53,026 nucleotides of DNA from an uncultured Planctomycetia bacterium (GTDB taxonomy: Bacteria; Omnitrophota; Gorgyraeia; Duberdicusellales; 4484-171). The stretch lies in assembly GCA_964590995.1 (NCBI GenBank), contig CAZPYY010000002.1:1-53026 (forward strand), given 5' to 3'. A model generated the notes under the pieces. The model searched no databases, had not been told where the DNA came from, and saw only the letters and a list, made by a program, of their open reading frames with translations. Shown here piece by piece: positions 3,852 through 18,754 of the stretch (position 1 is its first letter; each line of letters opens with the position of its first letter). The position numbers were made by a program, and so were the translations under genes.

Positions 3852-4139
3852 ATGTGTTATGTTGTATCAATAGTCGCAGCCGCAGTTACGTCGCTAACCT
3901 GGAGCAGGAGTAAAAGTATTAAAGTTTGGTGGTTGACCCTGATGTTTTACGGCGGAGCCATGTTCGGAGTAATCGATCACCTTTGGAATGGCGAGCTATT
4001 CCTTGTTTCGGCAAACACACCCAAAGATTTGATTCTAGGAGTGCTTATTGTCGTAACAATAATTTTGCTATGGGGAATGATGCTCTTCTTGAGCAAATTC
4101 AACCCTACTTTAGCTAAATATGTAGGCGTTAAGAGGTAA
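3852..4139 (+). CDS. Small integral membrane protein, unknown function
   Basis: 95 aa with three hydrophobic segments. A GAGGGGG Shine-Dalgarno lies upstream. No recognisable family. Confidence 0.45.
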   Translation: MCYVVSIVAAAVTSLTWSRSKSIKVWWLTLMFYGGAMFGVIDHLWNGELFLVSANTPKDLILGVLIVVTIILLWGMMLFLSKFNPTLAKYVGVKR

Positions 4140-4188: not shown

Positions 4189-4217
4189 TTGACAAGCCTA
4201 CCGGTGTGTGATATTAT
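4189..4217 (+). promoter_or_regulatory. Sigma70-type promoter of the hydrogenase operon (TTGACA-17-TATTAT with TGn extended -10, A/T-rich UP region)
   Basis: TTGACA at 4189-4194, TG at 4209-4210, TATTAT at 4212-4217, preceded by an A-rich tract. It sits in the only sizeable intergenic gap before the 16-kb gene train. Confidence 0.6.
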
Positions 4218-4229
4218 TAAATATCTTAC

Positions 4230-4247
4230 TTGTGATTTTATTCACAA
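4230..4247. promoter_or_regulatory. Rex-type operator, 18-bp palindrome TTGTGATTTTATTCACAA
   Basis: Matches the published Rex box consensus TTGTGAAnnnnTTCACAA in both half-sites. It lies 13 nt downstream of the -10 element, over the expected transcription start. A rex gene is encoded in the same operon (18101-18754). Confidence 0.65.
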
Positions 4248-4308: not shown

Positions 4309-5334
4309 ATGTATTACATCGCTTTAGGTAATTTTGCTATATTTCTAGATAATTTAAAGAAGGATTATATTGTCTATTTGCCGGTAAAGAAGGGTGAGCA
4401 GTGTCTTTATCAAGAGCATGATTCTCTCGGTGATGATGTTGTAATCGGCGAGGTAAGAGCCTTAGAGCCTTTAAAGTCATTTTTTTACCGGGCAAGAGAA
4501 GTAGTTGCCGAAGGCTTTAAAGAAGACATTCCCCATTCTGGCGATAAGCCCTTAGCTGTAGTTGGCGTTAAAGCCTGTGATTTAAAAGGTTTTAAAGTTC
4601 AAGATCATGTCTTCCAAAATCAAGATTGCCCAGAACCTTTCTACAATAAAGCCCGAGAAGAAAATCTTATTATTTCCGCAGACTGTACCTGCGCAATTGA
4701 TAGTTGTTTCTGTCTAGCCTTGGGCCTTAAGCCACATCCCCAAGAAGATTTTGACCTTAACCTATCTGAAGTCAAAGGTGGTTTTGTTGTTGAGTCTGGT
4801 TCTAAGAAGGGAGAGGTCCTTATCAGTAAAAATTCTTCACTGTTTAGCGATGCTGGTAAGGAAGAGATTGAAGAGAAGGAAAAACAGAGACTTAAGGTAA
4901 TAAGCGCAGTAGATAAGAATACTAAAACCAATGAAATTCCTAACCAAGATAGTTTCGAAGGCATTATTGAGAAGAATTATGATGCCAGCATTTGGAAAGA
5001 TGAGGCTGAAACCTGTGTTGAGTGCGGAGCCTGTAATGTAATTTGTCCTACTTGCCATTGTTTTCTTTTGTATGACCAGAAAGACGGTAAAAGGATGGCT
5101 CGCCTGCGGATTTGGGATTCATGTATGATAAAAGATTTTGCTAGAGTTGCTGGTGGAGCTAACCCCCGCGAGAGGCTCTGGATGAGATTAAGAAACCGAT
5201 TTGAGAAGAAGTTTGATTTCTTTCCCAAAGTTGCTGATGTTTATGCTTGCACCGGCTGCGGCCGTTGTATCCGGGCTTGTCCGGCCAAGATAGATATTAG
5301 AAAAGTATTAAATAAATTAGTAAACAGTGATTAA
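4309..5334 (+). CDS. Fe-S subunit, sulfhydrogenase beta (HydB) / AsrA-like 4Fe-4S dicluster protein
   Basis: CVECGACNVICPTCHCF and CTGCGRCIRACP ferredoxin motifs. The size and N-terminal domain match the beta subunit of Pyrococcus sulfhydrogenase and anaerobic sulfite reductase subunit A. It is paired with a gamma/AsrB-like gene. Confidence 0.7.
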   Translation: MYYIALGNFAIFLDNLKKDYIVYLPVKKGEQCLYQEHDSLGDDVVIGEVRALEPLKSFFYRAREVVAEGFKEDIPHSGDKPLAVVGVKACDLKGFKVQDHVFQNQDCPEPFYNKAREENLIISADCTCAIDSCFCLALGLKPHPQEDFDLNLSEVKGGFVVESGSKKGEVLISKNSSLFSDAGKEEIEEKEKQRLKVISAVDKNTKTNEIPNQDSFEGIIEKNYDASIWKDEAETCVECGACNVICPTCHCFLLYDQKDGKRMARLRIWDSCMIKDFARVAGGANPRERLWMRLRNRFEKKFDFFPKVADVYACTGCGRCIRACPAKIDIRKVLNKLVNSD

Positions 5335-6151
5335 TTGTAAAAACCCTTATCGACCAATCAAAGCTGAAGTTCTAGAAGTTATAGAAGAGACTCCGACTAT
5401 AAAGACGATAAGATTCAAACCGCAAGGGCCGGTGGGTTTTGCTACCGGTCAATTTATAGAGGTGACTATTCCTGGTGTAGGAGAAGCGCCTTTTACCCCG
5501 TCTTCAAAGTCTACAGTAAAGGATTTAATGGAAGTTACTGTGATGAGGGTTGGTAAAGTTACTGAGAAAATTCATCAACTTAAGAAGGGAGATGTTATTG
5601 GCGTAAGAGGCCCAATGGGTCAAGGATATCCCTTAGATAAGTTTAAAGGCAAAGAAGTTTTAGTCGTTGGAGGAGGGTGCGGTTTTGCGCCTCTGCGTAG
5701 CCTTATGTATGCACTTTTCCATGAGAGCAGCGAGTTTAAAAAACTAATTTTCAGAGGTGGTTGCAAGACCTCTAAGGAGTTAGTCTATAGAGGCGAGATG
5801 GGCGAATGGGCTAAGCGGGGTGATTTAGATTTAAAGCTTACCGTAGATAGAGGTGATAGTGGATGGAAGGGTAATGTTGGTGTTGTCACTACTATATTAG
5901 ATGATTTAGGTATGGATTATAAAAAAGGTATTGCTGTTGTTTGTGGACCGCCGATAATGATGAAATTTACCACTAAGAAACTACTTGAGATAGGTTTTGC
6001 CGATGAGAATATCTACCTTTCCATGGAGAAGAACATGTCTTGTGGTATTGGTAAGTGCGGACATTGTCGAATTGGAGTCTACTATGCTTGCAAAGATGGT
6101 CCGGTCTTTACCTATGATAAGATAAAGAACTTTCACGAAATTTGGGATTAA
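5327..6151 (+). CDS. FAD/NAD(P)-binding oxidoreductase with C-terminal 2Fe-2S (sulfhydrogenase gamma / AsrB / PyrK-like)
   Basis: FNR-like fold motifs (FTPSS.., VVGGGCGFAPL) and a C-terminal CGIGKCGHCRIG..C cluster motif. GTG start overlaps the upstream gene by 8 nt. Confidence 0.75.
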   Translation: MINCKNPYRPIKAEVLEVIEETPTIKTIRFKPQGPVGFATGQFIEVTIPGVGEAPFTPSSKSTVKDLMEVTVMRVGKVTEKIHQLKKGDVIGVRGPMGQGYPLDKFKGKEVLVVGGGCGFAPLRSLMYALFHESSEFKKLIFRGGCKTSKELVYRGEMGEWAKRGDLDLKLTVDRGDSGWKGNVGVVTTILDDLGMDYKKGIAVVCGPPIMMKFTTKKLLEIGFADENIYLSMEKNMSCGIGKCGHCRIGVYYACKDGPVFTYDKIKNFHEIWD

Positions 6152-6152
6152 A

Positions 6153-6719
6153 ATGAGTTCAAGCGCAGAACAATTACATCAAGGCAAGTTAAATCTAAAT
6201 GCTAAGAAGTCAAAGGATAAGCGATTATTCGTTGATTTAGACCTTTGTGCTTCTAGCCAATGTAAAGAGTGCGTACTTGAATGCAGTTACTATTACCATA
6301 CCCAGAGTCCGGTGAATAATGGTATTATCTCAGTAGTTGAACTTGCTACCTATGCTCTTGCCTGTCGTAGGTGCGAAGAACCCCACTGTGTTAATTCCTG
6401 TCCTGCTGATGCCTTAGAGCAGCAAAAGGATAAGGACAGCTTGCTAATCCGGCATAATATGCTTTGTATAAGTTGTAAATCTTGTTCCCATGCCTGCCCC
6501 TACGGTACTATATACCCGGAGCATGTTCCTTACCTGACCCATAATTGTGATTTTTGTTTAGACAGAAGAGATGAAAAGAATGAGCCTCTATGTATAAAGA
6601 GTTGTCCTTATGGAGCTTTAAGTTTAAAAGAAGGAAGTATTGAGCTTGATGAAAATACATTTTTAGTTGGTGATAATTTGATAGTTCACTCTACACATTG
6701 GAATAGGGATAAAGTATGA
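6153..6719 (+). CDS. Poly-ferredoxin, HycB/DmsB-like (four Cys clusters)
   Basis: Four Cys groups are present: CKECVLEC, CRRCEEPHCVNSCP, CISCKSCSHACP and CDFC..CIKSCP. This arrangement matches electron-transfer subunits of formate hydrogenlyase type. Confidence 0.75.
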   Translation: MSSSAEQLHQGKLNLNAKKSKDKRLFVDLDLCASSQCKECVLECSYYYHTQSPVNNGIISVVELATYALACRRCEEPHCVNSCPADALEQQKDKDSLLIRHNMLCISCKSCSHACPYGTIYPEHVPYLTHNCDFCLDRRDEKNEPLCIKSCPYGALSLKEGSIELDENTFLVGDNLIVHSTHWNRDKV

Positions 6720-7636
6720 TTTTAGTTTATCTTATAGTATTTGGTTTTTTGGCAACAGCAGTTATTGGGTTGTTGGCTAGTTGGATAGACCGTAAGGTTA
6801 CTGCCCGGGTTCAATATCGAGTAGGGCCGCCAATATTACAGCCTTTAATAGATATTGTAAAGCTTTTAGGTAAGGAGACCCTTATCCCTCGCGGTTCCTC
6901 GAAAACAACATTTTTGTTGGCGCCAGTTATTGGTTTCGCCAGTGTAATCTTAGTATCTACTCTTTTGTGGTTAAACAATATCAACCCCGGCAAGACTTTC
7001 CTTGGCGATTTAATAGTAGTTTTGTATTTATTAACTATTCCTTCAATGAGTATTATTATTGGCGGGTTTGCTTCTCGTAACCCCTTAGCTAGTTTAGGTG
7101 CATCTCGGGAGATGAAACTCATCTTAAGTTATGAACTCCCTTTTGTCTTAGCTATATTAGTTCCGATTATAAAATCTAACTTTTCTTTACGCTTAGGTGA
7201 GATTATAACTTTCCAGGCTCAAAATGGAGTAATCTTGGGAAATTTATCAGGGATATTGGCTTTTATTGTACTTATAATGTGTATGCAGGCAAAATTAGCT
7301 TTAGTCCCTTTTGATATTCCTGAAGCTGAGACCGAGATAGTTGGCGGTCCGCTAATAGAGTATTCAGGAACAGGGCTGGCTATTTATAGACTCACTAAAA
7401 ATATGCTTTTATTTGTCTTACCATTCTTTTTAATGATTCTTCTTATGGGTGGTTTAAGATTTGATGGGATACACTTACTTTATGGAATATTAAAGTATGT
7501 TGGTCTGGTTGCCCTTATAACAGTTATTAGAAATACCAATCCTCGAGTGAGGATTGATCAGGCAATGCGGTTTTTCTGGGGTCCAATGAGTGTAATTGCT
7601 ATAATTTCAGTTGTTTTAGCATTAATCGGAAGGTAG
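6716..7636 (+). CDS. Membrane subunit, NuoH/HycD/MbhM/EchB family
   Basis: 306 aa, about 8 TM helices. Motifs DRKVTARVQYRVGP and PFDIPEAETEIV are hallmarks of the NuoH family. Confidence 0.85.
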   Translation: MILVYLIVFGFLATAVIGLLASWIDRKVTARVQYRVGPPILQPLIDIVKLLGKETLIPRGSSKTTFLLAPVIGFASVILVSTLLWLNNINPGKTFLGDLIVVLYLLTIPSMSIIIGGFASRNPLASLGASREMKLILSYELPFVLAILVPIIKSNFSLRLGEIITFQAQNGVILGNLSGILAFIVLIMCMQAKLALVPFDIPEAETEIVGGPLIEYSGTGLAIYRLTKNMLLFVLPFFLMILLMGGLRFDGIHLLYGILKYVGLVALITVIRNTNPRVRIDQAMRFFWGPMSVIAIISVVLALIGR

Positions 7637-7637
7637 T

Positions 7638-8078
7638 ATGAGTGTAAAATTAAAAGCATTATTAAAATCACCTTGGGTTTTTCATCTTTCTACCGGGAGT
7701 TGTAATAATTGCGATATTGAGATATTAGACTGTCTTACTCCTAGGTTTGATGTTGAAAGGTTTGGAATGCTTTTAGCTGGGAGCATAAAGCATGCCGACG
7801 TACTCTTAGTTACTGGTTCAGCTAATAGAAAATCAATGGAGCGAGTCAAGAGATTATATGAGCAAGTACCTAAGCCTTGTTTGGTAGTGGCAATTGGAGA
7901 GTGCTCTTTATCTCGAGGTATGTTTATACATAGCTACAATTGTCCGGTTCCGATAGATAAGATTATACCAGTAGATGTTTACATACCGGGATGTCCGCCT
8001 AAGCCAGAGGCTATCATTGCTGGTGTGGTTAAATTGGTCGGAAAGGTAGAAGATACGCTTAAGAAGAAGGGAAAGTAA
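7638..8078 (+). CDS. [NiFe] hydrogenase small subunit, NuoB/HycG/MbhJ type
   Basis: CNNCDIE, GECS and PGCPPKPE provide the four Cys ligands of the proximal (N2-like) 4Fe-4S cluster. Confidence 0.85.
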   Translation: MSVKLKALLKSPWVFHLSTGSCNNCDIEILDCLTPRFDVERFGMLLAGSIKHADVLLVTGSANRKSMERVKRLYEQVPKPCLVVAIGECSLSRGMFIHSYNCPVPIDKIIPVDVYIPGCPPKPEAIIAGVVKLVGKVEDTLKKKGK

Positions 8079-8551
8079 TGTATCGAAGCGACGTTTTAGG
8101 AGATATTAACCAAAAATTTAAAGAGGGCATCATTGATGTTATTGATAAGTCTTCTACCCGAGTATATATCGAGATTAAGGCTTCTTCGCTTGTTAAGATC
8201 GCAAACTATATATTTAAAGAGCTAAAAGCTAGATTTAGTATTGCTTCTGGAGTAGATGTTCGTTCTCATATGGAGATTTTATATCACTTTACCTTAGAAG
8301 ATATAAATTTAGTAATTTCTCTAAGAGTAAAGTTAGATAAGTCAAAGCTAGAGATAGATTCGCTTACTCCTTCATTTGAAGCTGCAAATTGGATTGAGCG
8401 GGAAATCCATGAGATGCTGGGAATTAATTTTAAGGGCCATCCGGATTTAAGAAGACTTCTTTTGTCAGAGGATTGGCCTGAAGGTGTCTATCCTTTACGC
8501 AGAGACTATAAAGAGTGGGATAAAAAAGCAATTAGAGATAGAGGAGTATAG
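8078..8551 (+). CDS. NuoC/MbhK/HycE-N-like subunit
   Basis: ANWIEREIHEMLGINFKGHPD matches the NuoC (30 kDa subunit) signature. The ATG overlaps the upstream stop. Confidence 0.8.
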   Translation: MYRSDVLGDINQKFKEGIIDVIDKSSTRVYIEIKASSLVKIANYIFKELKARFSIASGVDVRSHMEILYHFTLEDINLVISLRVKLDKSKLEIDSLTPSFEAANWIEREIHEMLGINFKGHPDLRRLLLSEDWPEGVYPLRRDYKEWDKKAIRDRGV

Positions 8552-9735
8552 TGGCAAGAACAATAGTACCGATAGGGCCTTATCATCCTTTACAAGAAGA
8601 ACCAGAGTTCTTTACCCTTACTGTTGAGGGTGAAAAGATTATTGCTGTTGATGTTGAGGTTGGTTATAACCACCGGGGCATAGAAAAGCTCTCCGAGATG
8701 AAAACTTTTGATCAGTCTACCTTTGTTATTGAGAGAATTTGCGGTATTTGTTCTACTAGCCACCCTTTTGCTTACACTAGAGCAGTTGAGGATATTATCC
8801 CCTTGGAGGTTCCTGAGCGGGCTAAGTATATCCGAACCATAATCGCTGAAGGTGAGAGAATACACTCGCATCTCTTATGGTTAGGTTTAGCTGGACACTT
8901 CTTAGGATATAATACAGTCTATATGTGGGCTTGGAAATTACGCGAAGAGATTTTAGATGCAATGGAAGTTCTATCCGGAAATAGAAATAATTATGCGATG
9001 TTTAAACCTGGGGGGGTAAGGAGAGATATAAAGGCTGAGGATATTCCAGGAGTAGTTAAGAAGGTAGATTCAATCATACCGACGTTAATAATGCTTAAGA
9101 AAGCTGTTATGGATGATCCAGTCTTACATGCCCGAACTAAAGGGGTGGGTAAGCTTAGCAGGGAAGAAGCAATAAATTATTCGGCCTTGGGTCCAACCGC
9201 AAGAGCATCTGGTGTAGCCAGAGATTTGAGAAAAGATTGTCCTTATGGAGCTTATGAGAGGTTAGATTGGGAGATGATTGTAACCTCTAATGGTGATGTC
9301 TTTGATAAGTTAGTAGTAAGAGTTCTAGAGACCTTTGAGTCTATAAAAATAATAAAGTACTGTCTCCTGAATCTTCCCAAAGGCGAGATCGATGCTCAAA
9401 TCAAGAGCATTCCTTCCGGAGAAGGTATTGGCCAGATTGAAGCGCCAAGAGGAGAGTGCTTCCATTATGTAAAGAGTGACGGCACTAACCGGCCGGCTCG
9501 TCATAAGGTCAGGGCGCCAACTTTTATGAATCTGCCAACTTATAAATCAACTGTTGTTGGGCAGACTATATCTGATGCTACAATAATCTTTGCAGCTATT
9601 GATCCTTGCTATTGCTGTACAGAGAGAATGGCTGTACGCAATACTAGCGGTGAGAAAATTTATAACGGAGAAGATTTGATTCGGCTTTCACAAGAGAAGA
9701 CCGCTAAGATAAAAAATAAATTAGGTATTAAATGA
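8551..9735 (+). CDS. Group-4 [NiFe] hydrogenase large (catalytic) subunit, NuoD/HycE/MbhL type
   Basis: The N-terminal RICGICSTSH motif (CxxC, Cys64/Cys67) and C-terminal DPCYCCTER motif (DPCxxCxxR) are both intact. This indicates a true Ni-Fe site rather than an Mbx or complex I relative. A 35-aa tail follows the Arg cleavage position. GTG start. Confidence 0.9.
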   Translation: MARTIVPIGPYHPLQEEPEFFTLTVEGEKIIAVDVEVGYNHRGIEKLSEMKTFDQSTFVIERICGICSTSHPFAYTRAVEDIIPLEVPERAKYIRTIIAEGERIHSHLLWLGLAGHFLGYNTVYMWAWKLREEILDAMEVLSGNRNNYAMFKPGGVRRDIKAEDIPGVVKKVDSIIPTLIMLKKAVMDDPVLHARTKGVGKLSREEAINYSALGPTARASGVARDLRKDCPYGAYERLDWEMIVTSNGDVFDKLVVRVLETFESIKIIKYCLLNLPKGEIDAQIKSIPSGEGIGQIEAPRGECFHYVKSDGTNRPARHKVRAPTFMNLPTYKSTVVGQTISDATIIFAAIDPCYCCTERMAVRNTSGEKIYNGEDLIRLSQEKTAKIKNKLGIK

Positions 9736-11387
9736 GCTTAGTTGAACAATTATTCAAGATTGATAACCTTTCCATTTTTGTAGGGATATTTATCGGAATA
9801 TTCTCCTTAGTGACAATTATCTATTCAGCAGGCTTTATGAAGAGAAGTAAGGGGCTGATTCGTTATTACCTATATATAGTCCTTACTCTCCTAGCTTCTT
9901 TAGGTGCTGTTTTCTCCAACAATCTTATTCTGTTTATGGTCTTCTGGGGCTTCCTAGGCCTGCTTTTATACCTTTTGATTAGTTTTGGCGAGAAAGAAAA
10001 TACTTCAGCTACAGCAAAGAAGGCTTTTATAATAATTGGCGGTACCGATGCCTTTATGATATTGGGTTTAGCCTTTGTCTGGAAGATCTCCGGAGCATTG
10101 CAGATGGATAAAATAACTATCGCCTTAAACAGCAAGATAGCTGTTTGGGCTTATCTTTGCCTTGCTGCTGGTGCTTTTGCTAAGGCTGGAGCCATGCCCT
10201 TTCATACTTGGGTTCCTGATACTGCCCAAGATGCACCCACTCCGGTAACTGCCTTCCTACCGGCTTCTTTAGATAAGCTTCTTGGTATTTACTTCTTAGC
10301 CAGATTATCTTTGAATATCTTTGAGATGGATAGTGGTATGAATACATTTTTAATGGTGGTGGGCAGCATTACTATTGTTGCTGCAGTTATGATGGCTCTA
10401 ATCCAGCATGATTTAAAGAGGCTTTTGGGCTATCATGCTGTAAGCCAGGTTGGGTATATGGTTTTGGGTATTGGTACTGGTAGCCTTTTAGGCATCGCTG
10501 GAGGCTTATTTCATATGCTTAATAACGCTATTTATAAATCCTGTTTATTTTTAGGCGGGGGTGCAGTTGAGAAGAAAGCAGGGACAAGTGATTTAGAAAA
10601 ATTAGGCGGGTTTGCTAAGATTATGCCTATTACTTTTGGAGCCTTCTTGTTGGCTTCTTTAGCTATATCCGGGATTCCGCCTTTTAACGGTTTTGCTTCT
10701 AAGTGGATGATTTATCAAAGCATAATCAATACAGCTAGTAGTGGTGGGTATCTCTGGGTAGTATGGCTTATTGCTGCTTTGTTTGGCAGTGCTCTTACCT
10801 TAGCGAGTTTTATGAAGCTGGTGCATGCTGTTTTCTTGGGCCAACCTTCTGGGGAAGAGAAGGCATTAAATAATAAGAGGGGTGAAACTACCCCGGCTAT
10901 GTGGATTCCTCAAGTTTCTCTGGCCCTTCTTTGTCTTATCTTTGGTGTATTTGCTTATCAAATACCGCTTAAGATATTTATCCTTCCTAGTTTAGGGGGC
11001 GAGGTTGAGTTCCTTGGAATTTGGAATGCAAGTTTGGCTACTGTATTAATAATTGTAGGAATTGTAATTGGTATGATAATTTACCTTTTAGGTAAGGTGA
11101 CTAAGGCAAGAGAAGTGGGCGGTTTTGTAGGAGGAGAGAATTTAGAGAAACATCCTCAGATGCGAATTTCCGGAACTGAATTTTACAACACAATTCAGGA
11201 AATGGGAATTTTAAAGATTATTTATGAACTGGCCAAGAAAAAGGTATTTGATCTTTATGATATAGGTAGAAGAGTAGCCTTTGTTTTTGTTAGAATACTG
11301 CGCTATATCCACAATGGTGTGCTCCCTACATATATGGCTTGGTGTCTTTTAGGTATGATAATACTTTTTTATGCTTTGCGAGGCTAG
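9732..11387 (+). CDS. mrpA: Antiporter-like subunit, MrpA N-terminal / NuoL family
   Basis: 551 aa polytopic protein. Contains the proton-conducting membrane transporter motifs HTWVPDTAQDAPTPVTA and LLGYHAVSQVGYM. Confidence 0.8.
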   Translation: MSLVEQLFKIDNLSIFVGIFIGIFSLVTIIYSAGFMKRSKGLIRYYLYIVLTLLASLGAVFSNNLILFMVFWGFLGLLLYLLISFGEKENTSATAKKAFIIIGGTDAFMILGLAFVWKISGALQMDKITIALNSKIAVWAYLCLAAGAFAKAGAMPFHTWVPDTAQDAPTPVTAFLPASLDKLLGIYFLARLSLNIFEMDSGMNTFLMVVGSITIVAAVMMALIQHDLKRLLGYHAVSQVGYMVLGIGTGSLLGIAGGLFHMLNNAIYKSCLFLGGGAVEKKAGTSDLEKLGGFAKIMPITFGAFLLASLAISGIPPFNGFASKWMIYQSIINTASSGGYLWVVWLIAALFGSALTLASFMKLVHAVFLGQPSGEEKALNNKRGETTPAMWIPQVSLALLCLIFGVFAYQIPLKIFILPSLGGEVEFLGIWNASLATVLIIVGIVIGMIIYLLGKVTKAREVGGFVGGENLEKHPQMRISGTEFYNTIQEMGILKIIYELAKKKVFDLYDIGRRVAFVFVRILRYIHNGVLPTYMAWCLLGMIILFYALRG

Positions 11388-11390
11388 ATA

Positions 11391-11939
11391 ATGGTTGAGC
11401 TATATATCTTACTAATATTTATGATTGTGGGAGCAATTGTTGCTACTGAGCTAAAAGATCTTCTATCTTCAGTAATAGCAGTTGGTGCTGTAGGCTTAGG
11501 GCTTTCCATAGTCTTTTTAATACTTAAAGCACCGGATGTAGCCATTACCCAGCTAGTGGTTGAAATATTGTGTTTGATTATTTTGATTCGAGCAACCCTA
11601 AAGAAAGATATTCCCTTTGCAACAACAGGTAGGTGGTTTTTAAATACGCTTATTACTGTTACTTTTATTACCATGTTTTTATTTGTCGCTGCAAAAGCCT
11701 TGAAAGAGTTGCCAAGTTTTGGTTATCCGATTATGAAGGTTGCTAAAACATACCTTGCTAATGGTTTACAACAGACTGGTGCAGCTAATGTTGTTTCTTC
11801 GGTAATATTAGATTTTAGGGCATATGATACCTTGGGTGAAGCCACGATATTATTCACTGCTGTAATTGGAGTCTTGGCCGTTGTGCGTAAAATCGGTAGA
11901 AAAAAACAAGATGAGACAATAGAGGAGGAAGATGAGTAG
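11391..11939 (+). CDS. MrpA C-terminal-like / MbhD-MbhE-like membrane subunit (DUF4040 plus MnhB-type segment)
   Basis: APDVAITQLVVE (DUF4040-like) and ILDFRAYDTLGEATILF (MnhB-like) motifs. Confidence 0.65.
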   Translation: MVELYILLIFMIVGAIVATELKDLLSSVIAVGAVGLGLSIVFLILKAPDVAITQLVVEILCLIILIRATLKKDIPFATTGRWFLNTLITVTFITMFLFVAAKALKELPSFGYPIMKVAKTYLANGLQQTGAANVVSSVILDFRAYDTLGEATILFTAVIGVLAVVRKIGRKKQDETIEEEDE

Positions 11940-12384
11940 AGAGCACGATAAGGGTATGTCAGTAATTGTTAAGACGATCACTCGTCTTACAATAGGACTA
12001 ATACTGCTCTATGGTATTTATATAGTCACTCATGGTCATGTATCACCGGGTGGAGGGTTTGCCGGAGGTGTTATTATAGCCCTTTCTTTTGTCCATCTTA
12101 TGTTAGCTTACGGTAAGGAAACTGCCCTGAAAAAGTTTCCTAAAGGCTTGGTTTCGTTCCTAGAGAGCACCGGTGCAGTAATGTTCTTAGCTATAGCTTT
12201 CCTGGGTTTTACTGGAGGATACTTTTTCTTAAATTTTATAAGTAAGGGAAAGCCCTACGAGTTATTTAGTGCCGGAATTATCCCTCTTTGTAATATAGCA
12301 ATATGTCTTAAGGTCGGTGCCGGACTTTTTGCAATATTTGTTGCCTTAGTCTTATTGAAATTAGAGTCAGAGGAGAAGAAATGA
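11932..12384 (+). CDS. mrpB: Mrp antiporter subunit B-like (MnhB/MbhF)
   Basis: 150 aa with 4 TM helices and an SPGGGFAGGV motif typical of MnhB domains. Confidence 0.7.
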   Translation: MSREHDKGMSVIVKTITRLTIGLILLYGIYIVTHGHVSPGGGFAGGVIIALSFVHLMLAYGKETALKKFPKGLVSFLESTGAVMFLAIAFLGFTGGYFFLNFISKGKPYELFSAGIIPLCNIAICLKVGAGLFAIFVALVLLKLESEEKK

Positions 12385-12725
12385 TAATATATTTGCTTTG
12401 TTTAATGCTTTTTTGCGTAGGGCTATATTGTATCTTACGAAAGCGTAATATTATTAAGATTATCGTTGGTGTCATTATATCTGAGTATGCAGCTAATCTG
12501 TTTTTTATCTTGGTAGCCTATCGTATTGGCGGCAGAGCTCCCATATTCTCATCTCAAGCAGATATCTCTGCTTCTACTATGGTCGATCCCTTACCGCATG
12601 CTTTGGTTCTTACAGCTATTGTTATTGGTTTAGCTACCACAGCTTTATTAGTTGCTATTGCTATGAGAATTTATGAAAAATATGGTACTTTTGATATTAC
12701 AAAAATTAGGGAGTTAAGAGGATGA
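12381..12725 (+). CDS. mrpC: Mrp antiporter subunit C / NuoK-like (MbhG)
   Basis: 114 aa with 3 TM helices. Size, position and the DPLPHALVLTAIVIG motif match MnhC/NuoK. Confidence 0.75.
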   Translation: MIIYLLCLMLFCVGLYCILRKRNIIKIIVGVIISEYAANLFFILVAYRIGGRAPIFSSQADISASTMVDPLPHALVLTAIVIGLATTALLVAIAMRIYEKYGTFDITKIRELRG

Positions 12726-14227
12726 TTCCAGGCATTAATACAATACCCCTTTTTGTGGCAATAGCCTTAGCCGGAGCTTTCTTAATTTCTCTGGCTGGTA
12801 AAAAAATAAAGTGGGTACCAGACACATTGGGGAATCTTACTACTTTTGCTTTACTTTGCCTCTCTATCTTTGCGGTGAAGCTCTCAGGTTCTCAGGGAAC
12901 TCTGGTTTATGGTGTTGGTTATTGGAATCCGCCAGTAGGCATAGCCATGGTTCTAGATGGCTTAACTTCATTTATGCTTGTTACTGTAAACCTAGTTGCT
13001 TTTATCATCTCGATCTATGCGATAAATTACATGGAGAAGTATACTTCAAAGTGGAAATTCTATACCTTGTTCCTTCTGATGTTAGCCGGAATGAATGGAG
13101 TAATTATTACCGGTGATATCTTTAATTTGTTTGTATTCTTAGAGATTGCTTCGGTAGCAAGTTATGCTTTGGTTGCTTTTGGAACTGAACGCCATGAGCT
13201 AGAAGCTGCTTTTAAGTATGCGGTTATGGGTACAGTAGGTTCACTATTTATTCTTCTGGGGATTGCCCTTTTATATAGCCGCACCTCTACCTTGAATATG
13301 GCTGATATGGGTAGTGTTTTAGCTGGGAAGGGAAGTACTGACTTGATTCGTTTGGTGAGCGTTTTATTCCTAATGGGTTTTGGTCTTAAAGCTGCCCTTG
13401 TCCCTTTTCATGCCTGGTTGCCTGATGCTCATCCTTCAGCACCGGCTCCGATATCCGCTATGCTTTCGGGAGTATTAATAAAATCTCTAGGTATCTATGC
13501 CTTGATTAGAATATTCTATAATGTAGTAGGGATGAGTCCTGAACTAGCCTCAATAATAATGCTTTTAGGAGCAATATCTATGGTTGTTGGTGGATTGCTG
13601 GCTTTAGGGCAATGGGATTTTAAACGGCTCTTAGCTTACTCTTCTATAAGCCAGGTAGGTTATATTGTTTTAGCTATTGGTCTTGGTACACCCTTGGGAA
13701 TATTAGCCGGGCTCTTTCATCTCTTTAACCACTCAATATTTAAGTCGTTATTATTTTTGAATTCAGGAGCAGTAGAATACTCTACCGGAACCCGAGATCT
13801 GCAGCAGATGGGCGGTTTAGGAAAGAAGATGCCCTTAACCGGCTTAACTAACCTAACAGCTTCTATGTCTATTGCCGGTGTTCCGCCCTTTAGTGGTTTC
13901 TGGAGTAAGCTATTTATTATAGTCGCAATAGTCCAAGCCGGTTACTATGGGTATGCTTTCTGGGCTGTTTTAGTGAGTGTGTTGACCTTGGCTATGTATG
14001 TTAAGGTTACCAAGTATGCTTTCTTTGGAACCTTGAAGGAGAAGTGGGAACAGATAAGAGAAGTACCTGCATTTATGAAGCTTTCAATGGCAATGTTAGC
14101 ATTCATTTGTTTAATAGGGGGAGTATTGCTTATTTCAGGGATAAAAGAGATTTTTCTGCAGCCGGCATCAAAAGCTCTCTTAGATGGCAGTAAGTATAGT
14201 AGTTTGGTTCTAAGTCAGGTGAAATAG
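12722..14227 (+). CDS. mrpD: Antiporter-like subunit MrpD / NuoM-N family (MbhH)
   Basis: 501 aa. Motifs FHAWLPDAHPSAPAPISA and LLAYSSISQVGYI. Confidence 0.85.
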   Translation: MIPGINTIPLFVAIALAGAFLISLAGKKIKWVPDTLGNLTTFALLCLSIFAVKLSGSQGTLVYGVGYWNPPVGIAMVLDGLTSFMLVTVNLVAFIISIYAINYMEKYTSKWKFYTLFLLMLAGMNGVIITGDIFNLFVFLEIASVASYALVAFGTERHELEAAFKYAVMGTVGSLFILLGIALLYSRTSTLNMADMGSVLAGKGSTDLIRLVSVLFLMGFGLKAALVPFHAWLPDAHPSAPAPISAMLSGVLIKSLGIYALIRIFYNVVGMSPELASIIMLLGAISMVVGGLLALGQWDFKRLLAYSSISQVGYIVLAIGLGTPLGILAGLFHLFNHSIFKSLLFLNSGAVEYSTGTRDLQQMGGLGKKMPLTGLTNLTASMSIAGVPPFSGFWSKLFIIVAIVQAGYYGYAFWAVLVSVLTLAMYVKVTKYAFFGTLKEKWEQIREVPAFMKLSMAMLAFICLIGGVLLISGIKEIFLQPASKALLDGSKYSSLVLSQVK

Positions 14228-14725
14228 ATGAAGAGCAGAGTAGTTTTATTTATAATCGCATTTTTAATCTGGTCCCTATTGAACTGGATACCGGATGCAC
14301 AACACCTTATAGTCGGAGTTTTTGTTGCTGCCCTTGTAGCCTTTTTAACCGGAGATTTATTTGTTACCCGGCCGCATGTATTACAGCATCCGTGGCGTTA
14401 CTGGTATTTCATTGCGCATTATTTGCCGGTATTTTTATTAGAAGTTGTGAAAGCCAATATTGATGTTGCTTATCGGGTATTACATCCTGATTTGCCGATA
14501 AATCCCGGAATTGTAAAGGTAAAAACAATTTTAAAGAGCGATACGGCTTTAACATTTTTGGCTAACTCGATAACTTTAACTCCTGGTACTATGAGTGTGG
14601 ATATAGACAGGGATAATGGTGTTTTATATATACACTGGATTAATGTGAAGGCAAAAGATATTGAAAGTGCTACAAAAATCATTGTCCAGCGCTTTGAAAA
14701 AATACTAAAGAAGATTTTTGATTAA
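14228..14725 (+). CDS. mrpE: Mrp antiporter subunit E (MnhE/MbhA)
   Basis: 165 aa with two N-terminal TM helices followed by a soluble domain. ANIDVAYRVLHP and SITLTPGT motifs are typical of MnhE. Confidence 0.7.
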   Translation: MKSRVVLFIIAFLIWSLLNWIPDAQHLIVGVFVAALVAFLTGDLFVTRPHVLQHPWRYWYFIAHYLPVFLLEVVKANIDVAYRVLHPDLPINPGIVKVKTILKSDTALTFLANSITLTPGTMSVDIDRDNGVLYIHWINVKAKDIESATKIIVQRFEKILKKIFD

Positions 14726-14735
14726 AGGGGATAAT

Positions 14736-15104
14736 ATGAAGATGTTTAGATGGATTGCTGGTGCGATAGTTTTAACGGGAATTATAGGTCTGATTATAAT
14801 TCGGCCGCTCCCTTTCCTTTTCTACGCTGATCTTCCTTATGTGAATTTCTTAGGCAGGGCTCTCTACATACTTATTTTAGCTTGTTTTTTGTGCCTCTAT
14901 CGTATCTATAGGGGGCCGACCGGTGCTGATCGGGTAGTGGCAATTGATATTTTGGGTATCATGATTGCTGGTTTGTGCGCAGTATTGACTATTTCTACTG
15001 GAAGGTCTTGGTATATTGATATTGGAATAGCCTGGGCTTTGCAGAGTTTTATAAGTACCTTAGCGCTCTCCAAATATTTAGAAGGAAGAGGGTTCGATGA
15101 GTAG
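14736..15104 (+). CDS. mrpF: Mrp antiporter subunit F (MnhF/MbhB)
   Basis: Three TM helices and a RIYRGPTGADRVVAID motif typical of MnhF. ATG 14736 follows AAGGGG at 14725-14730 and is preferred over the overlapping track start at 14718. Confidence 0.7.
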   Translation: MKMFRWIAGAIVLTGIIGLIIIRPLPFLFYADLPYVNFLGRALYILILACFLCLYRIYRGPTGADRVVAIDILGIMIAGLCAVLTISTGRSWYIDIGIAWALQSFISTLALSKYLEGRGFDE

Positions 15105-15432
15105 TATTATTGGTTTGGTATTTATTAGTTTAGGATTAGCTTTTGATCTTTTTGGTGTTTTAGGCTTAGTGCGCCTTCCCGATGTTTACAATCGTCTGCA
15201 GGCAGCTACAAAGTGTGTCACTTTAGGCACTTGCAGTATTCTATTCGGAACATTTCTTGTGGTTGGCCCGGTAGCATCAGGCATGAAAGCGCTCTTGTGT
15301 ATGGTCTTTTTACTATTAACCTCTCCGGTGGCTGCCCATGCTATAGCCAGAGGTGCGCATAGGGCAGGGGTAAAGCTTAGCAAAGAGAGCGTTGTAGATA
15401 AGTACTTGGAAGATAAAGAGGGAGAAGTGTAG
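15097..15432 (+). CDS. mrpG: Mrp antiporter subunit G (MnhG/MbhC)
   Basis: 111 aa. LVRLPDVYNRLQAATK and LTSPVAAHAIARGA motifs are typical of MnhG. Confidence 0.75.
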   Translation: MSSIIGLVFISLGLAFDLFGVLGLVRLPDVYNRLQAATKCVTLGTCSILFGTFLVVGPVASGMKALLCMVFLLLTSPVAAHAIARGAHRAGVKLSKESVVDKYLEDKEGEV

Positions 15433-15461
15433 TTTAAAAGGTTAAAGTTCAAAGTTAGAAG

Positions 15462-16076
15462 ATGCAAATGCGGTTACCAAAGATCAGAGAATTAACTGAA
15501 GCTATAAAAGCCCTTATAAAAGGGCCTTATACTTCAAAGTTTCCTATTGAGCCACACCAACCTCACCCTAATTTTAGAGGACAGCCCAAGTTTAACGACC
15601 AGAAGTGTGTGGGTTGCACTGCCTGTAAAGAGGTTTGTCCGGTAGAGGCGATTGATTATCAAGATGTTGTTGACGATAAGCTTAATCCGCGAAGAGTTAT
15701 GATTCACTATACTGATACCTGCATATTCTGCGGTCAGTGCGAAGCTGCTTGCATTGCCGATAATGAGGGTATCAAATTATCTAATGATTGGGAGCTTTCC
15801 TTCTTTGATCGCAGTAAAGCTGATGAGCGAATAGAGAAAGAGCTGCAACTCTGCGAGATTTGCGGCGAAGTTATTGCTTGTTGTGACCACCTAGAGTGGA
15901 TCGTTAAGAAGGTAGGAGAGCTTAGTTTTTCCAGCCCGACACTATATCTTCTACGTCTCAGGAGCTTAGGTATTGTAGACCAAAACATCATATCCGCCTT
16001 AGCCGATCAAGGACGCTCTGACCGGGTAAAGATTCTTTGTGCTAGCTGCAGAAGAAAGACCACCCTGACTATTTAA
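15462..16076 (+). CDS. 2x[4Fe-4S] ferredoxin subunit, NuoI/MbhN/HycF-like, with a Cys-rich C-terminal extension
   Basis: CVGCTACKEVCP and CIFCGQCEAAC motifs. The extra C-terminal region carries CEICGEVIACCDH and CASCRRK. Confidence 0.75.
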   Translation: MQMRLPKIRELTEAIKALIKGPYTSKFPIEPHQPHPNFRGQPKFNDQKCVGCTACKEVCPVEAIDYQDVVDDKLNPRRVMIHYTDTCIFCGQCEAACIADNEGIKLSNDWELSFFDRSKADERIEKELQLCEICGEVIACCDHLEWIVKKVGELSFSSPTLYLLRLRSLGIVDQNIISALADQGRSDRVKILCASCRRKTTLTI

Positions 16077-16081
16077 TTGAA

Positions 16082-16582
16082 ATGAGAACTAATTTGAAAG
16101 ATATACTTAAAGGAAAAATTGTTATCGTTGGTATCGGAAACATTATCCGCGGGGATGATGGCTTCGGACCTTTGCTGATTGAAAAGATAAAGGGTGGGGT
16201 TGAGATGATGTGTTTAGATGGCGGGATTGCTCCTGAGAATTACCTGGGCAAAATCACCAAAGAAAATCCCGATACGGTTTTAATTATTGATGCTGTTCAT
16301 CTAGGCAAGAATCCTGGTGAGTACGAGATTTTAAAGGGAGAAGATATAGCAAAGTGCGGATTCACTACTCATGATATCTCCCCGGTAATGTTTATAGAGT
16401 ATTTAACCAGAGAGACCGAGGCTAATATTTATATGCTTGGGGTTCAACCTCAAGGTATTGAATTAGGTTCAGAGATGTCCAATAAGCTTAAAACAGCATT
16501 AGAGGAACTATCAGGAAAAATTTTGGAGGCAGTCAATGCACGAGACTCACTTAATAAAACCGATAATCAAAGGCATAGTTAA
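16082..16582 (+). CDS. hycI: Hydrogenase maturation endopeptidase (HycI/HyaD family)
   Basis: VGIGNIIRGDDGFGP, IIDAV and the HD motif provide the metal ligands of this protease family. This fits the 35-aa C-terminal tail on the large subunit. Confidence 0.8.
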   Translation: MRTNLKDILKGKIVIVGIGNIIRGDDGFGPLLIEKIKGGVEMMCLDGGIAPENYLGKITKENPDTVLIIDAVHLGKNPGEYEILKGEDIAKCGFTTHDISPVMFIEYLTRETEANIYMLGVQPQGIELGSEMSNKLKTALEELSGKILEAVNARDSLNKTDNQRHS

Positions 16583-16789: not shown

Positions 16790-18097
16790 ATGTGTTACGC
16801 AATTCCCGGAAAGGTAAAAGCGATAAGGGGAAGAGAAGTTTTAGTAGACTACTTCGGTGAAGAGAAAAAAGCAATTAATGAGTTCTACGATATTGCTGTT
16901 GGAGATTATATCTGTGCTCAAGGCGGGTTTGTAATAAAAAAAGTTAAAGAAGATGAAGCTAGAGAAGTCTTATCAGCTTGGCAGGAATTATTCTTCGAGC
17001 TCCAAGACGTTGACCTGCGTCTTTCCCGGCTGGACTCAGAAGAAGGTAGCGATAAGAAGCTACGTCTTATTTTAGATAAGGCCTTAGAAAATATCCCTTT
17101 AAAGAAAGATGAATTATCGTATTTGCTTGACTTAGGTAGCCAACAATCTTGCCAGCTTCTTTATAAATCGGCAAATTTCTTACGCCAGAAATACCATAGA
17201 AACTCCTGTTGTATCCACGGAATAATTGAGATTTCAAATAATTGTCAGCAACAGTGTACTTATTGTGGGATATCAACGCACAATAAAACGCTCTTGCGTT
17301 ACCGGATGAGTCCGGATGAGATTATCGAGACTTCTGTTGAGGCAGTAGAAAGATATGGTTTCCAGGCTCTGGTTTTACAGAGCGGAGAAGATCCTGGCTA
17401 TAGCGTAGATGAGTTAGCTATAACCATAAGGAAAATTAAGGAGAAGGTTCCAGTATTAATCTGTATCAGCTTTGGCGAGGTGGGATTAGAGGGATTAGAA
17501 AGACTTTATCTTGCCGGAGCAAGAGCTATACTTATGCGTTTCGAAACCTCTAACCCGAAAATTTTTGCCCAGGTTCATCCCGGGCAGAAACTCGAAACTA
17601 GGTTAGAACATATTAGGAAAGCTTCCTTATTAGGTTATCTGATTATGACCGGTGCGCTTATTGGTCTGCCCGGACAAACTAATCATGATATTATAAATGA
17701 TATTTATCTGGCTAAAGAATTAGGCGCTGAGATGTATTCTTTTGGTCCTTTTCTGCCACATCCCCAAACACCTTTGGGGAATCTTGCACCTCCGAGGGAA
17801 GAGTTGGCTTTAAAGACCTTAGCCTTGGCTCGGCTCATTGATCCTGAGCGAGCCAAAATTTTAGTAACTACAGCCCTAGAGACTCATGCACCGACTACTC
17901 GCAAGAGGGGGTTACTTTCAGGTGCTAACTCTTTGATGCTTAATGTTACACCAGTTAAATACCGAAAGCTTTATGAGATTTACCCTAATAAGGCTTATAA
18001 CAAGGAGTTAATAGATAAGCAAATTGATGCGGCAATAGCTTTACTTAAATCTTTAGGCCGGGCTCCTACAGATTTAGGAGTAAGCGAGGTGAATTAA
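16790..18097 (+). CDS. hydE: Fusion protein: HypC/HupF-type [NiFe] chaperone (residues 1 to about 72) plus HydE-type radical-SAM maturase (residues about 90 to 435)
   Basis: N-terminus MCYAIPGKVKAI..VGDYICAQGGFVIKKV..EEA matches HypC and includes Cys2. The remainder aligns with HydE: CQQQCTYCG (CX3CX2C, Cys152/156/159), LQSGEDP, GLPGQT, GPFLPHPQTPL, YPNK. It is a single uninterrupted ORF. Confidence 0.8.
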   Translation: MCYAIPGKVKAIRGREVLVDYFGEEKKAINEFYDIAVGDYICAQGGFVIKKVKEDEAREVLSAWQELFFELQDVDLRLSRLDSEEGSDKKLRLILDKALENIPLKKDELSYLLDLGSQQSCQLLYKSANFLRQKYHRNSCCIHGIIEISNNCQQQCTYCGISTHNKTLLRYRMSPDEIIETSVEAVERYGFQALVLQSGEDPGYSVDELAITIRKIKEKVPVLICISFGEVGLEGLERLYLAGARAILMRFETSNPKIFAQVHPGQKLETRLEHIRKASLLGYLIMTGALIGLPGQTNHDIINDIYLAKELGAEMYSFGPFLPHPQTPLGNLAPPREELALKTLALARLIDPERAKILVTTALETHAPTTRKRGLLSGANSLMLNVTPVKYRKLYEIYPNKAYNKELIDKQIDAAIALLKSLGRAPTDLGVSEVN

Positions 18098-18100
18098 ACT

Positions 18101-18754
18101 ATGGGAAGAAAAAATAACAAGAATAGCTTTTCTTTGGAGACAATTAGGCGTCTTAGTCTCTATTTACGGAACTTAAAGAGATTAAAGGAGCAGAATATAG
18201 ATATTATTTCTTCAAATGAGCTGACAAAATTTCTTAATATTACTCCAGCACAATTTAGAAAAGATCTCTCTTTCTTTGGCGGGTTTGGCAAAAGAGGCGT
18301 TGGTTATAATGTTGAGAAGTTAACTGAAGAGATAGAGAATATATTAGGGGTAAACAAAGAGTGGGCAATTGCCATAGTTGGCGTGGGAAAGCTAGGAAGT
18401 GCGCTCTTAGGCTTTGAAGGGTTTTCTAAATTTAATATTAAAATAACCTTTGCTTTTGATATTGATAGAGATAAGGTAGGTAAGGTAAGGGAAGGGGTAA
18501 AGATTAACCACATAAAGGAGATAAAGGATATTATCAGGCAGAATAATATCAAAGTTGCAATAATTTCTACACCGCCGGAAGCTGCTCAAGGAGTTGCTGA
18601 TGAGTTAGCTTCCTCAGGTATTAAGGGCATTTTAAATTTTGCACCGATAGTGCTAAAAGTACCTCAAGCTGTATCAGTATCTAATGTTGATATGGCTTCT
18701 GAGCTAGAGAGTTTAATATTTCTTACTAAACGAAGACAAGGAAGGACAGGATAA
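18101..18754 (+). CDS. rex: Redox-sensing transcriptional repressor Rex
   Basis: N-terminal winged-helix region (RRLSLYLRNLKRL..ISS.EL) followed by a Rossmann GVGKLGSAL NADH-binding domain. 217 aa. Confidence 0.85.
   Translation: MGRKNNKNSFSLETIRRLSLYLRNLKRLKEQNIDIISSNELTKFLNITPAQFRKDLSFFGGFGKRGVGYNVEKLTEEIENILGVNKEWAIAIVGVGKLGSALLGFEGFSKFNIKITFAFDIDRDKVGKVREGVKINHIKEIKDIIRQNNIKVAIISTPPEAAQGVADELASSGIKGILNFAPIVLKVPQAVSVSNVDMASELESLIFLTKRRQGRTG

Follow-up and report, generated by a model that had tools for sequence, protein, structure and literature searches.

A sulfhydrogenase-like input module in the Hun hydrogenase-antiporter family suggests a possible link between a group 4 [NiFe] hydrogenase and NAD(P)H

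We analyzed a stretch of 53,026 nucleotides (contig CAZPYY010000002.1, positions 1 to 53,026, hereafter the window) from an uncultured bacterium of the Omnitrophota, in which bases 4309-16076 of the forward strand form a genuine 16-gene operon for a membrane-bound [NiFe] hydrogenase combined with a Na+/H+ antiporter module. The locus is an ordinary further member of a published and named family, the 16-subunit "Hun" hydrogenase-Na+/H+ antiporter supercomplex encoded by hunA-P (Glass et al. 2021, Environ Microbiol; bioRxiv 10.1101/536078), and its value lies not in the discovery of a cluster but in a re-reading of the input module, where HunA and HunB are sulfhydrogenase-like, HunC and HunP are like subunits of formate hydrogenlyase (FHL), and the operon is linked to the redox-sensing repressor Rex. 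Given these features, we see an even chance that Hun is a reversible, ion-coupled NAD(P)H:H+ oxidoreductase. In a fuller form, advanced more tentatively, Hun would be the first pyridine-nucleotide-coupled group 4 [NiFe] hydrogenase, a reversible Na+/H+-translocating enzyme that could be described as a complex I with the proton as its terminal acceptor. Coupling to NAD(P)H appears to be the most economical reading of the conserved flavoprotein HunB.

Gene identities were established from an open reading frame (ORF) listing together with Pfam and NCBIfam profile searches, and solved homologues were taken from matches in the Protein Data Bank (PDB). An earlier sequence-only reading of this DNA had named the products of the first two genes as a beta/gamma pair, and the structural matches agree: HunB matches the gamma subunit of Pyrococcus furiosus sulfhydrogenase I best (9nez_C, E 7e-52, nearly full length), ahead of PyrK, NfnS-type and other FNR-family reductases, and HunA has a single match, to the beta subunit of that enzyme (9nez_B, E 1.4e-38). 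Against NCBIfam models, HunA scores 193 bits for ShyB, 159 for HydB and 130 for AsrA, while HunB scores 243.5 bits for AsrB and 178-182 bits for the hydrogenase-gamma models. Because all of these values fall under the equivalog cut-offs (600-750 bits for ShyB/ShyC and HydB/HydG, 323 for AsrA and 288.6 for AsrB), the pair forms a subfamily of its own. Conservation within this subfamily is strict, with 15 Cys of HunA invariant across 57 sequences. The flavin- and nucleotide-binding residues of HunB, inspected for any sign of loss, are intact: across 61 orthologues from many phyla, the FAD motifs (GQF, GEAPFTPSS and RVGKVT), the nucleotide motifs (GGGxGxAPxR and CGPPxMMKF) and the [2Fe-2S] motif (CGIGKCGHC...C) are invariant or nearly so.

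HunA and HunB therefore carry the features of a group 3b beta/gamma pair (a Fer4_22 domain and N-terminal Cys clusters in the former; FAD, NAD(P) and 2Fe-2S motifs in the latter) and are full-length homologues of the sulfhydrogenase I subunits with the same cofactor motifs, but their scores stay under the ShyB/ShyC and HydB/HydG cut-offs and their partner is a different one. Whereas in group 3b (9nez) the pair serves a soluble alpha/delta dimer, in Hun it serves a membrane-bound group 4 enzyme by way of a HycB-like wire. The frame beta-gamma-[hydrogenase]-hycI-hypC::hydE-rex also occurs in another Omnitrophota lineage, with a soluble group 3b hydrogenase inside it; the gamma subunit there is 43% identical to HunB, and both proteins carry GCK(S/T)xKEL. 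In a relative at 44% identity to HunG that has no Mrp genes, the NAD motifs of the gamma subunit are degraded, with AFTVRGIGLATAR for VVGGGCGFAPLR and CGWEENR for CGPPIMM; set against this relative, the strict motif conservation of HunB points to selection for nucleotide binding. As to which nucleotide, position 147 of HunB is always Lys or Arg in the 61 orthologues (Arg in the gamma subunit of sulfhydrogenase I) and no acidic residue is conserved just after it, and these features, together with R143, lean weakly towards NADPH over NADH.

The electron wire behind this pair resembles that of FHL. The 16 Cys that HunC keeps across 62 sequences (14 invariant, each of the others present in 61) suffice for four [4Fe-4S] clusters, and the PDB matches of HunC, which include HycB3/HycB4 of the hydrogen-dependent CO2 reductase (HDCR), NrfC and FdnH, place it in the HycB/CooF/NrfC family. 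The best match of HunP is HycF of Escherichia coli FHL (7z0s_F, E 7e-18), at 68 bits versus 41 for MbhN. Eight of the HunP cysteines fit two [4Fe-4S] clusters, and C131, C134, C193 and C196 are likewise invariant. The C131/C134 pair aligns with a CxxC of E. coli HycF, which is reportedly the subunit that docks HycB in FHL, and the extra cysteines may form an additional metal site at the HunC/HunP junction. No FdhH, carbon monoxide dehydrogenase (CODH) or molybdopterin domain occurs in 4309-16076 or in the other window ORFs scanned, and among the Pfam domains of 4309-16076 no substrate-binding subunit is found besides HunA/HunB. A HycB-like HunC, a HycF-like HunP and the beta/gamma pair together describe a peripheral arm built like that of FHL with beta/gamma in the place of FdhH, which supports the earlier proposal that the input module of an FHL-like complex had been swapped.

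This arrangement separates Hun from the formate- and CO-coupled enzymes. E. coli FHL (7z0s, group 4a) shares with Hun the sequence of input enzyme, HycB-type four-cluster wire, HycF, HycG and HycE, but its input is FdhH and it has no Mrp, whereas Hun combines a beta/gamma flavoprotein pair with Mrp. The Thermococcus formate and CO enzymes (group 4b) possess a full Mrp set like Hun, while the Hun input is neither FdhH nor CODH. The formate dehydrogenase or CODH catalytic subunit that defines groups 4a, 4b and 4c is absent from the window cluster. We also considered the NADP-dependent Fdh3 of Thermococcus onnurineus as a precedent for beta/gamma on another enzyme, and dropped it because its NAD(P) subunit is NfnB/GltD-like and not gamma-like.

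The catalytic core is that of a group 4 [NiFe] hydrogenase, as the earlier reading had it. The HunG translation contains the L1 motif RICGICSTSH and the L2 motif DPCYCCTER, with all four NiFe cysteines present, followed by a 35-residue C-terminal tail, and its top PDB matches are MbhL (E 5.6e-87) and HycE (E 1.2e-81). The accompanying NuoB-like one-cluster small subunit, NuoH-like anchor and HycI-type protease, beside the NuoD-like large subunit, are those expected of group 4. The hycI gene stands 3' of hunP in nearly all related loci; both NiFe motifs and the adjacent hycI thus identify a true [NiFe] hydrogenase and not an Mbx/MBS- or Ehr-type relative, and the tail after DPCYCCTER with the neighboring hycI implies C-terminal processing.

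The association of the input module with this core is widespread. When a single genome per species was scanned, at least 592 of them proved to encode a HunG relative, and gene order was surveyed in the best 80 of these loci. These 80 show 78-92% identity and come from Omnitrophota, Atribacterota, Elusimicrobiota, Hydrogenedentota, Fermentibacteria/Aegiribacteria, Spirochaetota, NC10 and Desulfosarcina variabilis, a cultured species. HunG of the window is 82-93% identical to proteins from metagenome-assembled genomes of Omnitrophota, Atribacteria and Elusimicrobia. Wherever the flanks suffice, the hunA-hunP order is intact in the best 80 loci and is usually followed by hycI, conservation well in excess of what chance would give. 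The exception is three Spirochaetota loci (L052, L072 and L080) whose order is A-B-C-D-E-F-G-P-hycI without Mrp genes in line; L072 has hunH-K upstream, on the opposite strand. Relatives under 78% were drawn from a 50%-identity representative library. The nearest of these, at 56% identity to HunG (P0122), has the same 16 genes followed by hycI, hypF, hypC and hypD; the relative at 44% (P0126, L088:4808-11011) reads beta-gamma-HycB-NuoH-B-C-D-I with no Mrp genes within 9 kb; and one at 42% (P0128) has an ordinary Ech/Mbh-type cluster without beta/gamma. The contigs of two others (P0121 at 56% and P0124 at 45%) are too short to show neighbors. Since the trio is attached to hydrogenase genes in the best 80 loci and in the 56% and 44% relatives, the objection that close homologues might carry beta/gamma as a separate unit fails; in the relatives surveyed the two genes are never separate. 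Judged by gene order, it is the beta-gamma-HycB trio that stays with this hydrogenase lineage, and the Mrp set that varies.

Individual loci depart from the common plan in other ways. An additional antiporter-like gene lies between hunG and hunH in L037 (11805-13061), a second, distant beta/gamma pair stands upstream of hunA in an NC10 locus (L079:1398-3300), and L050 and L076 carry a second group 4-like pair of large and small subunits downstream on the opposite strand. No molybdopterin gene occurs between hunB and hunC in the window or in the best 80 loci.

The operon is also marked by a recurrent regulatory signal. The pattern TTGTGAN6TCACAA has a single site in the 53-kb window, at 4230-4247, where 0.09 would be expected by chance. 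This predicted Rex operator matches the consensus TTGTGAAnnnnTTCACAA at 13 of 14 positions and falls at the promoter region, and a rex gene follows downstream (Table 1). Among related loci, nine have a 13/14 box 44-184 nt upstream of hunA, and in 11 a box of at least 12/14 stands 44-239 nt ahead of the hunA start codon. The rex gene itself is upstream of hunA in 18 related loci, within 78 nt in 15 of them, and 15 of these 18 loci have a box at 11-12/14, located 12-87 nt upstream of rex. By comparison, about 2% of random 260-nt windows (58 of 3000) reach 11/14. No Rex box was found in the hun loci of lineages such as Fermentibacteria, Hydrogenedentota and Desulfosarcina among the loci surveyed. 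On this pattern of predicted sites and neighboring genes, the linkage of Rex to hun across Omnitrophota and Atribacterota is real and recurrent. Rex also governs ferredoxin-dependent hydrogenases in other bacteria. Of the earlier argument that Rex control fits pyridine-nucleotide coupling, the control part is thus strengthened by conserved linkage in related loci, while its bearing on the donor is lost, as Rex is not specific to NADH-using enzymes. Within the operon, the stretch 6151-6716 contains no promoter- or terminator-like site above background, as had been stated from the sequence; over the whole scanned stretch, promoter-like sites number 46 versus 42.5 +/- 6.3 in shuffles and terminator-like sites 16 versus 13.9 +/- 3.6.

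Taken together, these features make the following mechanism the most likely one. Transcription would proceed from 4189-4217, with Rex repressing at 4230-4247 and being released when NADH accumulates. In the complex, HunB (FAD, NAD(P) site and [2Fe-2S]) would pair with HunA (several [4Fe-4S]) as the input module, so that NAD(P)H would reduce the FAD of HunB and electrons would move to the [2Fe-2S] cluster of HunB and on to the HunA clusters. The wire would continue through HunC (four clusters), HunP and HunE to the NiFe site in HunG, where H2 would form, and the electron path would cross roughly ten or more Fe-S clusters. HunF would sit in the catalytic head and HunD would anchor this head to the membrane, and conformational and electrostatic changes at the HunD/HunG interface would be coupled to H+/Na+ movement via the Mrp arm (HunH-O).

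The calculated energetics place this reaction near equilibrium, and its direction would therefore be set by the H2 pressure and the NAD(P)H/NAD(P)+ ratio. The step from NAD(P)H to H2 amounts to +18 kJ/mol under standard conditions. For NADH at -320 mV it comes to about 0 kJ/mol at ~70 Pa H2 and to -10 kJ/mol at 1 Pa H2, and for NADPH at -370 mV to -14 kJ/mol at 10 Pa H2 and -20 kJ/mol at 1 Pa H2. At the H2 levels of sediments (~10 Pa or less), Hun would serve in the disposal of reductant, either exporting few ions or none, at most about one per H2, or importing ions to help drive NADH to H2. At high H2, NAD(P)+ would be reduced and ions exported.

In the membrane arm, HunL is a canonical MrpD/MbhH-type subunit, matching MbhH (E 3.6e-82), MrpD (E 3.5e-77) and MbsH (E 2.2e-72) and keeping E141, K223, K254, H333, H337, K341 and K396. 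HunH matches MbhH, NdhF and MrpA, aligns over its full length, with its C-terminal extension, to MbsH', and keeps K151, H158, K182, K269 and K324. The review by Yu et al. counts one antiporter-like subunit in Mbh and two in MBS and Mrp. The claim that Hun has two pumps (551 and 501 residues) compared with one in Mbh accordingly stands as a count of family members, whereas as a count of pumps it is weakened by the atypical HunH, which lacks transmembrane helices (TM) 1-3 and the TM5 Glu.

Several points weigh against NAD(P)H as the donor, or against a well-defined ion yield. The cost of moving one ion against 150 mV is 14.5 kJ/mol, yet by calculation NADH to H2 is exergonic only below ~70 Pa H2, and NADPH at -370 mV pays for one ion only at ~10 Pa H2 or less. 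Unless it operates in reverse, a large ion arm of two modules is better matched to a stronger donor, for example ferredoxin, and this thin energy margin is the main argument both for ferredoxin as the donor and for a complex with two inputs. HunH begins ~70-80 residues into the reference proteins, so that TM1-3 are absent, and in 67 of 67 orthologues Gly73 replaces the TM5 Glu (the "FWE" motif of NdhF and MrpA), which makes the stoichiometry of the ion arm uncertain. For the choice between NADH and NADPH, the motif argument is weak. Given that Rex governs ferredoxin-linked hydrogenases as well, the Rex linkage speaks for a redox-balancing role and not for the identity of the donor. The only published model of Hun has HunABC take electrons from ferredoxin (10.1101/536078), and the reported variants with a molybdopterin oxidoreductase between hunB and hunC indicate that HunAB can coexist with another input enzyme (10.1101/536078; PMC6349859).

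Glass et al. 2021 (10.1101/536078) described HunAB as Asr-like, proposed that HunABC collect electrons from ferredoxin, reported that HydDB assigns HunG to group 4g although it is far from other 4g sequences, and named Kosmotoga as a cultured carrier; their text contains no mention of Rex, NADPH or sulfhydrogenase, and its sole "NADH" is in the name of complex I. The window locus has the same 16 genes in the same order, the same CGIC (L1) and unusual CYCC (L2) in HunG, and relatives in the same phyla (Atribacteria, Omnitrophica and Elusimicrobia), so nothing structural differs and only the reading of the donor does. Matheus Carnevali et al. 2019 (PMC6349859) reported an "enigmatic" group 4 hydrogenase of Saganbacteria RX5A, whose electron donor they called unknown and whose nearest relatives are in Omnitrophica and Zixibacteria; its locus shares with the window the hydrogenase, Mrp-like, cooF-, asrA- and asrB-like genes, whereas its molybdopterin oxidoreductase is absent from the window and from the best 80 loci. 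Williams et al. 2021 and 2022 annotated Mrp-linked group 4g hydrogenases of this type as ferredoxin-dependent ("Group 4g Mbh linked to Mrp") in Omnitrophota, Cloacimonadota and Auribacterota, and HydDB lists the role of group 4g as undetermined. In the literature reachable by search, NAD(P)H coupling of Hun was not found.

The best-placed alternative is accordingly that Hun is a ferredoxin-oxidizing, H2-evolving, Na+/H+-translocating enzyme of the Mbh-Mrp type in which HunABC only collect electrons from ferredoxin (Glass et al. 2021; Williams et al. 2021, 2022), and we consider this unlikely. Ferredoxin is the donor of those characterized Mrp-linked group 4 enzymes that have no dedicated dehydrogenase, HydDB gives group 4g as putatively ferredoxin-coupled, the many Fe-S clusters of HunA and HunC are exposed and could accept electrons from ferredoxin, and the energy of ferredoxin suffices for a two-module ion arm where that of NAD(P)H hardly does. 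Such an enzyme would, however, need no flavoprotein, and yet the complete FNR-type FAD/NAD(P) site of HunB is near-invariant in 61 orthologues, and among solved proteins HunB is closest to the gamma subunit of the NADPH-dependent sulfhydrogenase I. Moreover, Mbh accepts ferredoxin electrons directly and has neither beta/gamma nor HycB-type subunits, HunP is nearer to HycF than to MbhN, and the papers that propose ferredoxin leave the NAD(P) domain of HunB undiscussed. The comparison with P. furiosus Mbh (6cfw, group 4d) is instructive here: MbhL is the best solved match of HunG and MbhH that of HunL, but Mbh has one antiporter-like subunit and direct ferredoxin input, whereas the window cluster contains hunABC and two Proton_antipo_M subunits, which sets it apart from group 4d.

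A second possibility, which we rate as quite improbable, is that Hun exchanges electrons with both ferredoxin and NAD(P)(H), working either as a ferredoxin:NAD(P)+ oxidoreductase that is coupled to ions and has a hydrogenase as its outlet, or as a producer of H2 from both donors. Several surface clusters lie along the long Fe-S chain, the energetics favor part of the input coming from ferredoxin, and the variants with a molybdopterin enzyme show that the wire can take more than one input. Yet the cluster encodes neither a second flavin nor a bifurcating-type subunit (NuoF/HydB-like or NfnL-like), no ferredoxin docking site is marked in the sequence, and FNR flavoproteins of the HunB type (NfnS, PyrK) are simple electron-transfer sites and not bifurcating ones. 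That beta/gamma is instead a sulfur-, polysulfide- or sulfite-reactive module, so that Hun would work like MBS or Asr, is very improbable: HunA and HunB do give scores with the models for AsrA and AsrB, S0 is reduced by sulfhydrogenase in vitro, and MBS shows that group 4-related complexes can reduce sulfane sulfur, but the scores (130 and 243.5 bits) do not reach the cut-offs (323 and 288.6 bits), none of the four NiFe cysteines is missing from HunG, which is accompanied by a HycI protease, and no AsrC or siroheme protein occurs in the surveyed loci and no AsrC, siroheme or NIR_SIR protein among the window ORFs scanned.

With NAD(P)H as the favored donor, the position of Hun among related complexes can be summarized by two further comparisons. 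Like Hun, MBS (6u8y) and Mrp have two antiporter-like subunits, and the C-terminal extension of HunH aligns with MbsH', but MBS reduces sulfane sulfur instead of making H2, and HunH lacks TM1-3 and the TM5 Glu, unlike the reference antiporter-like subunits. With complex I, Hun would share a general outline, namely a flavoprotein for pyridine nucleotides, a chain of Fe-S clusters, a core of the NuoB/C/D/H/I type and antiporter-like subunits. The two differ in that Hun has no NuoEFG, its flavoprotein is of the FNR type with FAD and not FMN, the acceptor would be H+ at the NiFe site and not quinone, and two antiporter-like subunits with the Mrp small subunits stand in place of the three that complex I has.

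The layout of the locus is given in Table 1. All 16 ORFs (16/16 in the ORF listing) are on the + strand, and the gene list and order given by the earlier reading are borne out by the ORF listing, Pfam and NCBIfam. Neighboring hun genes overlap by 1-8 nt or are spaced by 0-5 nt, with the sole exception of 29 nt ahead of hunP.

Table 1. Features of the hun locus and its flanks, in window coordinates
Feature	Coordinates	Strand	Description
Promoter	4189..4217	+	Sigma-70-type, predicted; TTGACA, 17 nt, TATTAT, with TG; 11/12 matches, best of the region
Rex operator	4230..4247	+	Predicted, TTGTGATTTTATTCACAA; between -10 hexamer and hunA
hunA	4309..5334	+	Sulfhydrogenase beta/AsrA-like Fe-S protein; Pfam Fer4_22
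hunB	5327..6151	+	Gamma-like FAD/NAD(P)/[2Fe-2S] flavoprotein; Pfam FAD_binding_6, NAD_binding_1, DHODB_Fe-S_bind
hunC	6153..6719	+	HycB/CooF-type ferredoxin, 188 residues, four [4Fe-4S]; Pfam Fer4_11
hunD	6716..7636	+	NuoH/HycD/MbhM-like membrane anchor; Pfam NADHdh, E 8e-67
hunE	7638..8078	+	NuoB-like hydrogenase small subunit; Pfam Oxidored_q6; cluster ligands GSCNNC, GEC, PGCPP in translation
hunF	8078..8551	+	NuoC-like; Pfam Complex1_30kDa
hunG	8551..9735	+	Group 4 [NiFe] large subunit, NuoD-like; Pfam Complex1_49kDa, NiFeSe_Hases
hunH	9732..11387	+	Atypical MrpA-N/NuoL-like antiporter-like subunit, 551 residues; Pfam Proton_antipo_M
hunI	11391..11939	+	MrpA C-terminal part, fused MbhD + MbhE; Pfam MbhD, MbhE
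hunJ	11932..12384	+	MrpB-like; Pfam MnhB
hunK	12381..12725	+	MrpC/NuoK-like; Pfam Oxidored_q2
hunL	12722..14227	+	Canonical MrpD/MbhH-like antiporter-like subunit, 501 residues; Pfam Proton_antipo_M
hunM	14228..14725	+	MrpE-like; Pfam MNHE
hunN	14718..15104	+	MrpF-like; Pfam MrpF_PhaF
hunO	15097..15432	+	MrpG-like; Pfam PhaG_MnhG_YufB
hunP	15462..16076	+	HycF/NuoI-like 2x[4Fe-4S] subunit; NCBIfam: FHL iron-sulfur subunit
hycI	16082..16582	+	HycI-type maturation endopeptidase; Pfam HycI; TIGR00142, 111.6 bits
hypC::hydE	16790..18097	+	HypC fused to HydE-like radical-SAM protein, putative accessory; Pfam HupF_HypC, Radical_SAM
rex	18101..18754	+	Redox-sensing repressor; NCBIfam Rex, E 8e-79

Downstream of the operon, the maturation genes show some features of their own. 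The HypC::HydE fusion (N-terminus MCYAIPGKV; TIGR03956, 230.9 bits versus a cut-off of 254.6) is found 3' of hycI in 11 related Hun loci, and belongs to a large family, chiefly from Omnitrophota, with more than 120 clusters at 60% identity or above. At 18759-20255 follows a HydG homologue (463 bits versus a cut-off of 312) with the C-terminal motif FCTAGYRCGRTGKC, where the solved HydG structures 4wcx and 4rtb have CTACYR; a Gly replaces the second Cys of the auxiliary-cluster CxxC, new Cys appear 3 and 9 residues later, and homologues with 62-63% identity in L016 and L042 share this variant. The window ORFs scanned include neither an [FeFe] hydrogenase nor HydF. We considered HypC::HydE with HydG as a CO/CN route for the NiFe site and dropped the idea, as the same fusion adjoins [FeFe] hydrogenase genes elsewhere: in a related Omnitrophota locus it sits between a group 3b [NiFe] operon and [FeFe] hydrogenase genes, and these radical-SAM proteins therefore probably have their ordinary [FeFe] job. 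Between hycI and the fusion, an 80-residue ORF (16536-16778) overlaps the end of hycI by 47 nt; it begins with MHETH, which we take to resemble the Ni-binding N-terminus of HypA, has no zinc-finger CxxC pairs, and may be a truncated HypA-like nickel chaperone.

Elsewhere in the window, a hydrophobic 95-residue ORF without a Pfam match (3852-4139) lies directly upstream of the hun promoter and has its own promoter-like site at 3783-3810. Over 1-53026, nearly all sizeable ORFs are on the + strand and the GC skew is positive throughout; the sole minus-strand ORF of at least 110 residues that does not overlap a longer + ORF is at 44011-44469. A homologue of EF-G with 1037 residues is encoded at 45125-48238, its GTPase domain starting at residue 347 behind a long N-terminal extension without a Pfam match.

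Overall, Hun is among the most widespread uncharacterized hydrogenases, and our re-reading suggests that the family has probably been mis-assigned as to its electron donor. Metabolic reconstructions of Atribacterota and Omnitrophota treat Hun as a ferredoxin-dependent Mbh, an assumption that an NAD(P)H donor, if true, would overturn. With NAD(P)H as donor or acceptor, abundant subsurface fermenters would have a different predicted redox balance, with other H2 thresholds and energy yields, and the mostly uncultured anaerobes that carry a HunG relative could link NAD(P)H directly with H2 and the membrane potential. Cultured carriers, namely Desulfosarcina variabilis and, according to Glass et al. 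2021, Kosmotoga, make Hun testable. If true, NAD(P)H coupling would add a new coupling partner for group 4 hydrogenases and would offer a present-day counterpart to a step that accounts of complex I evolution often invoke.

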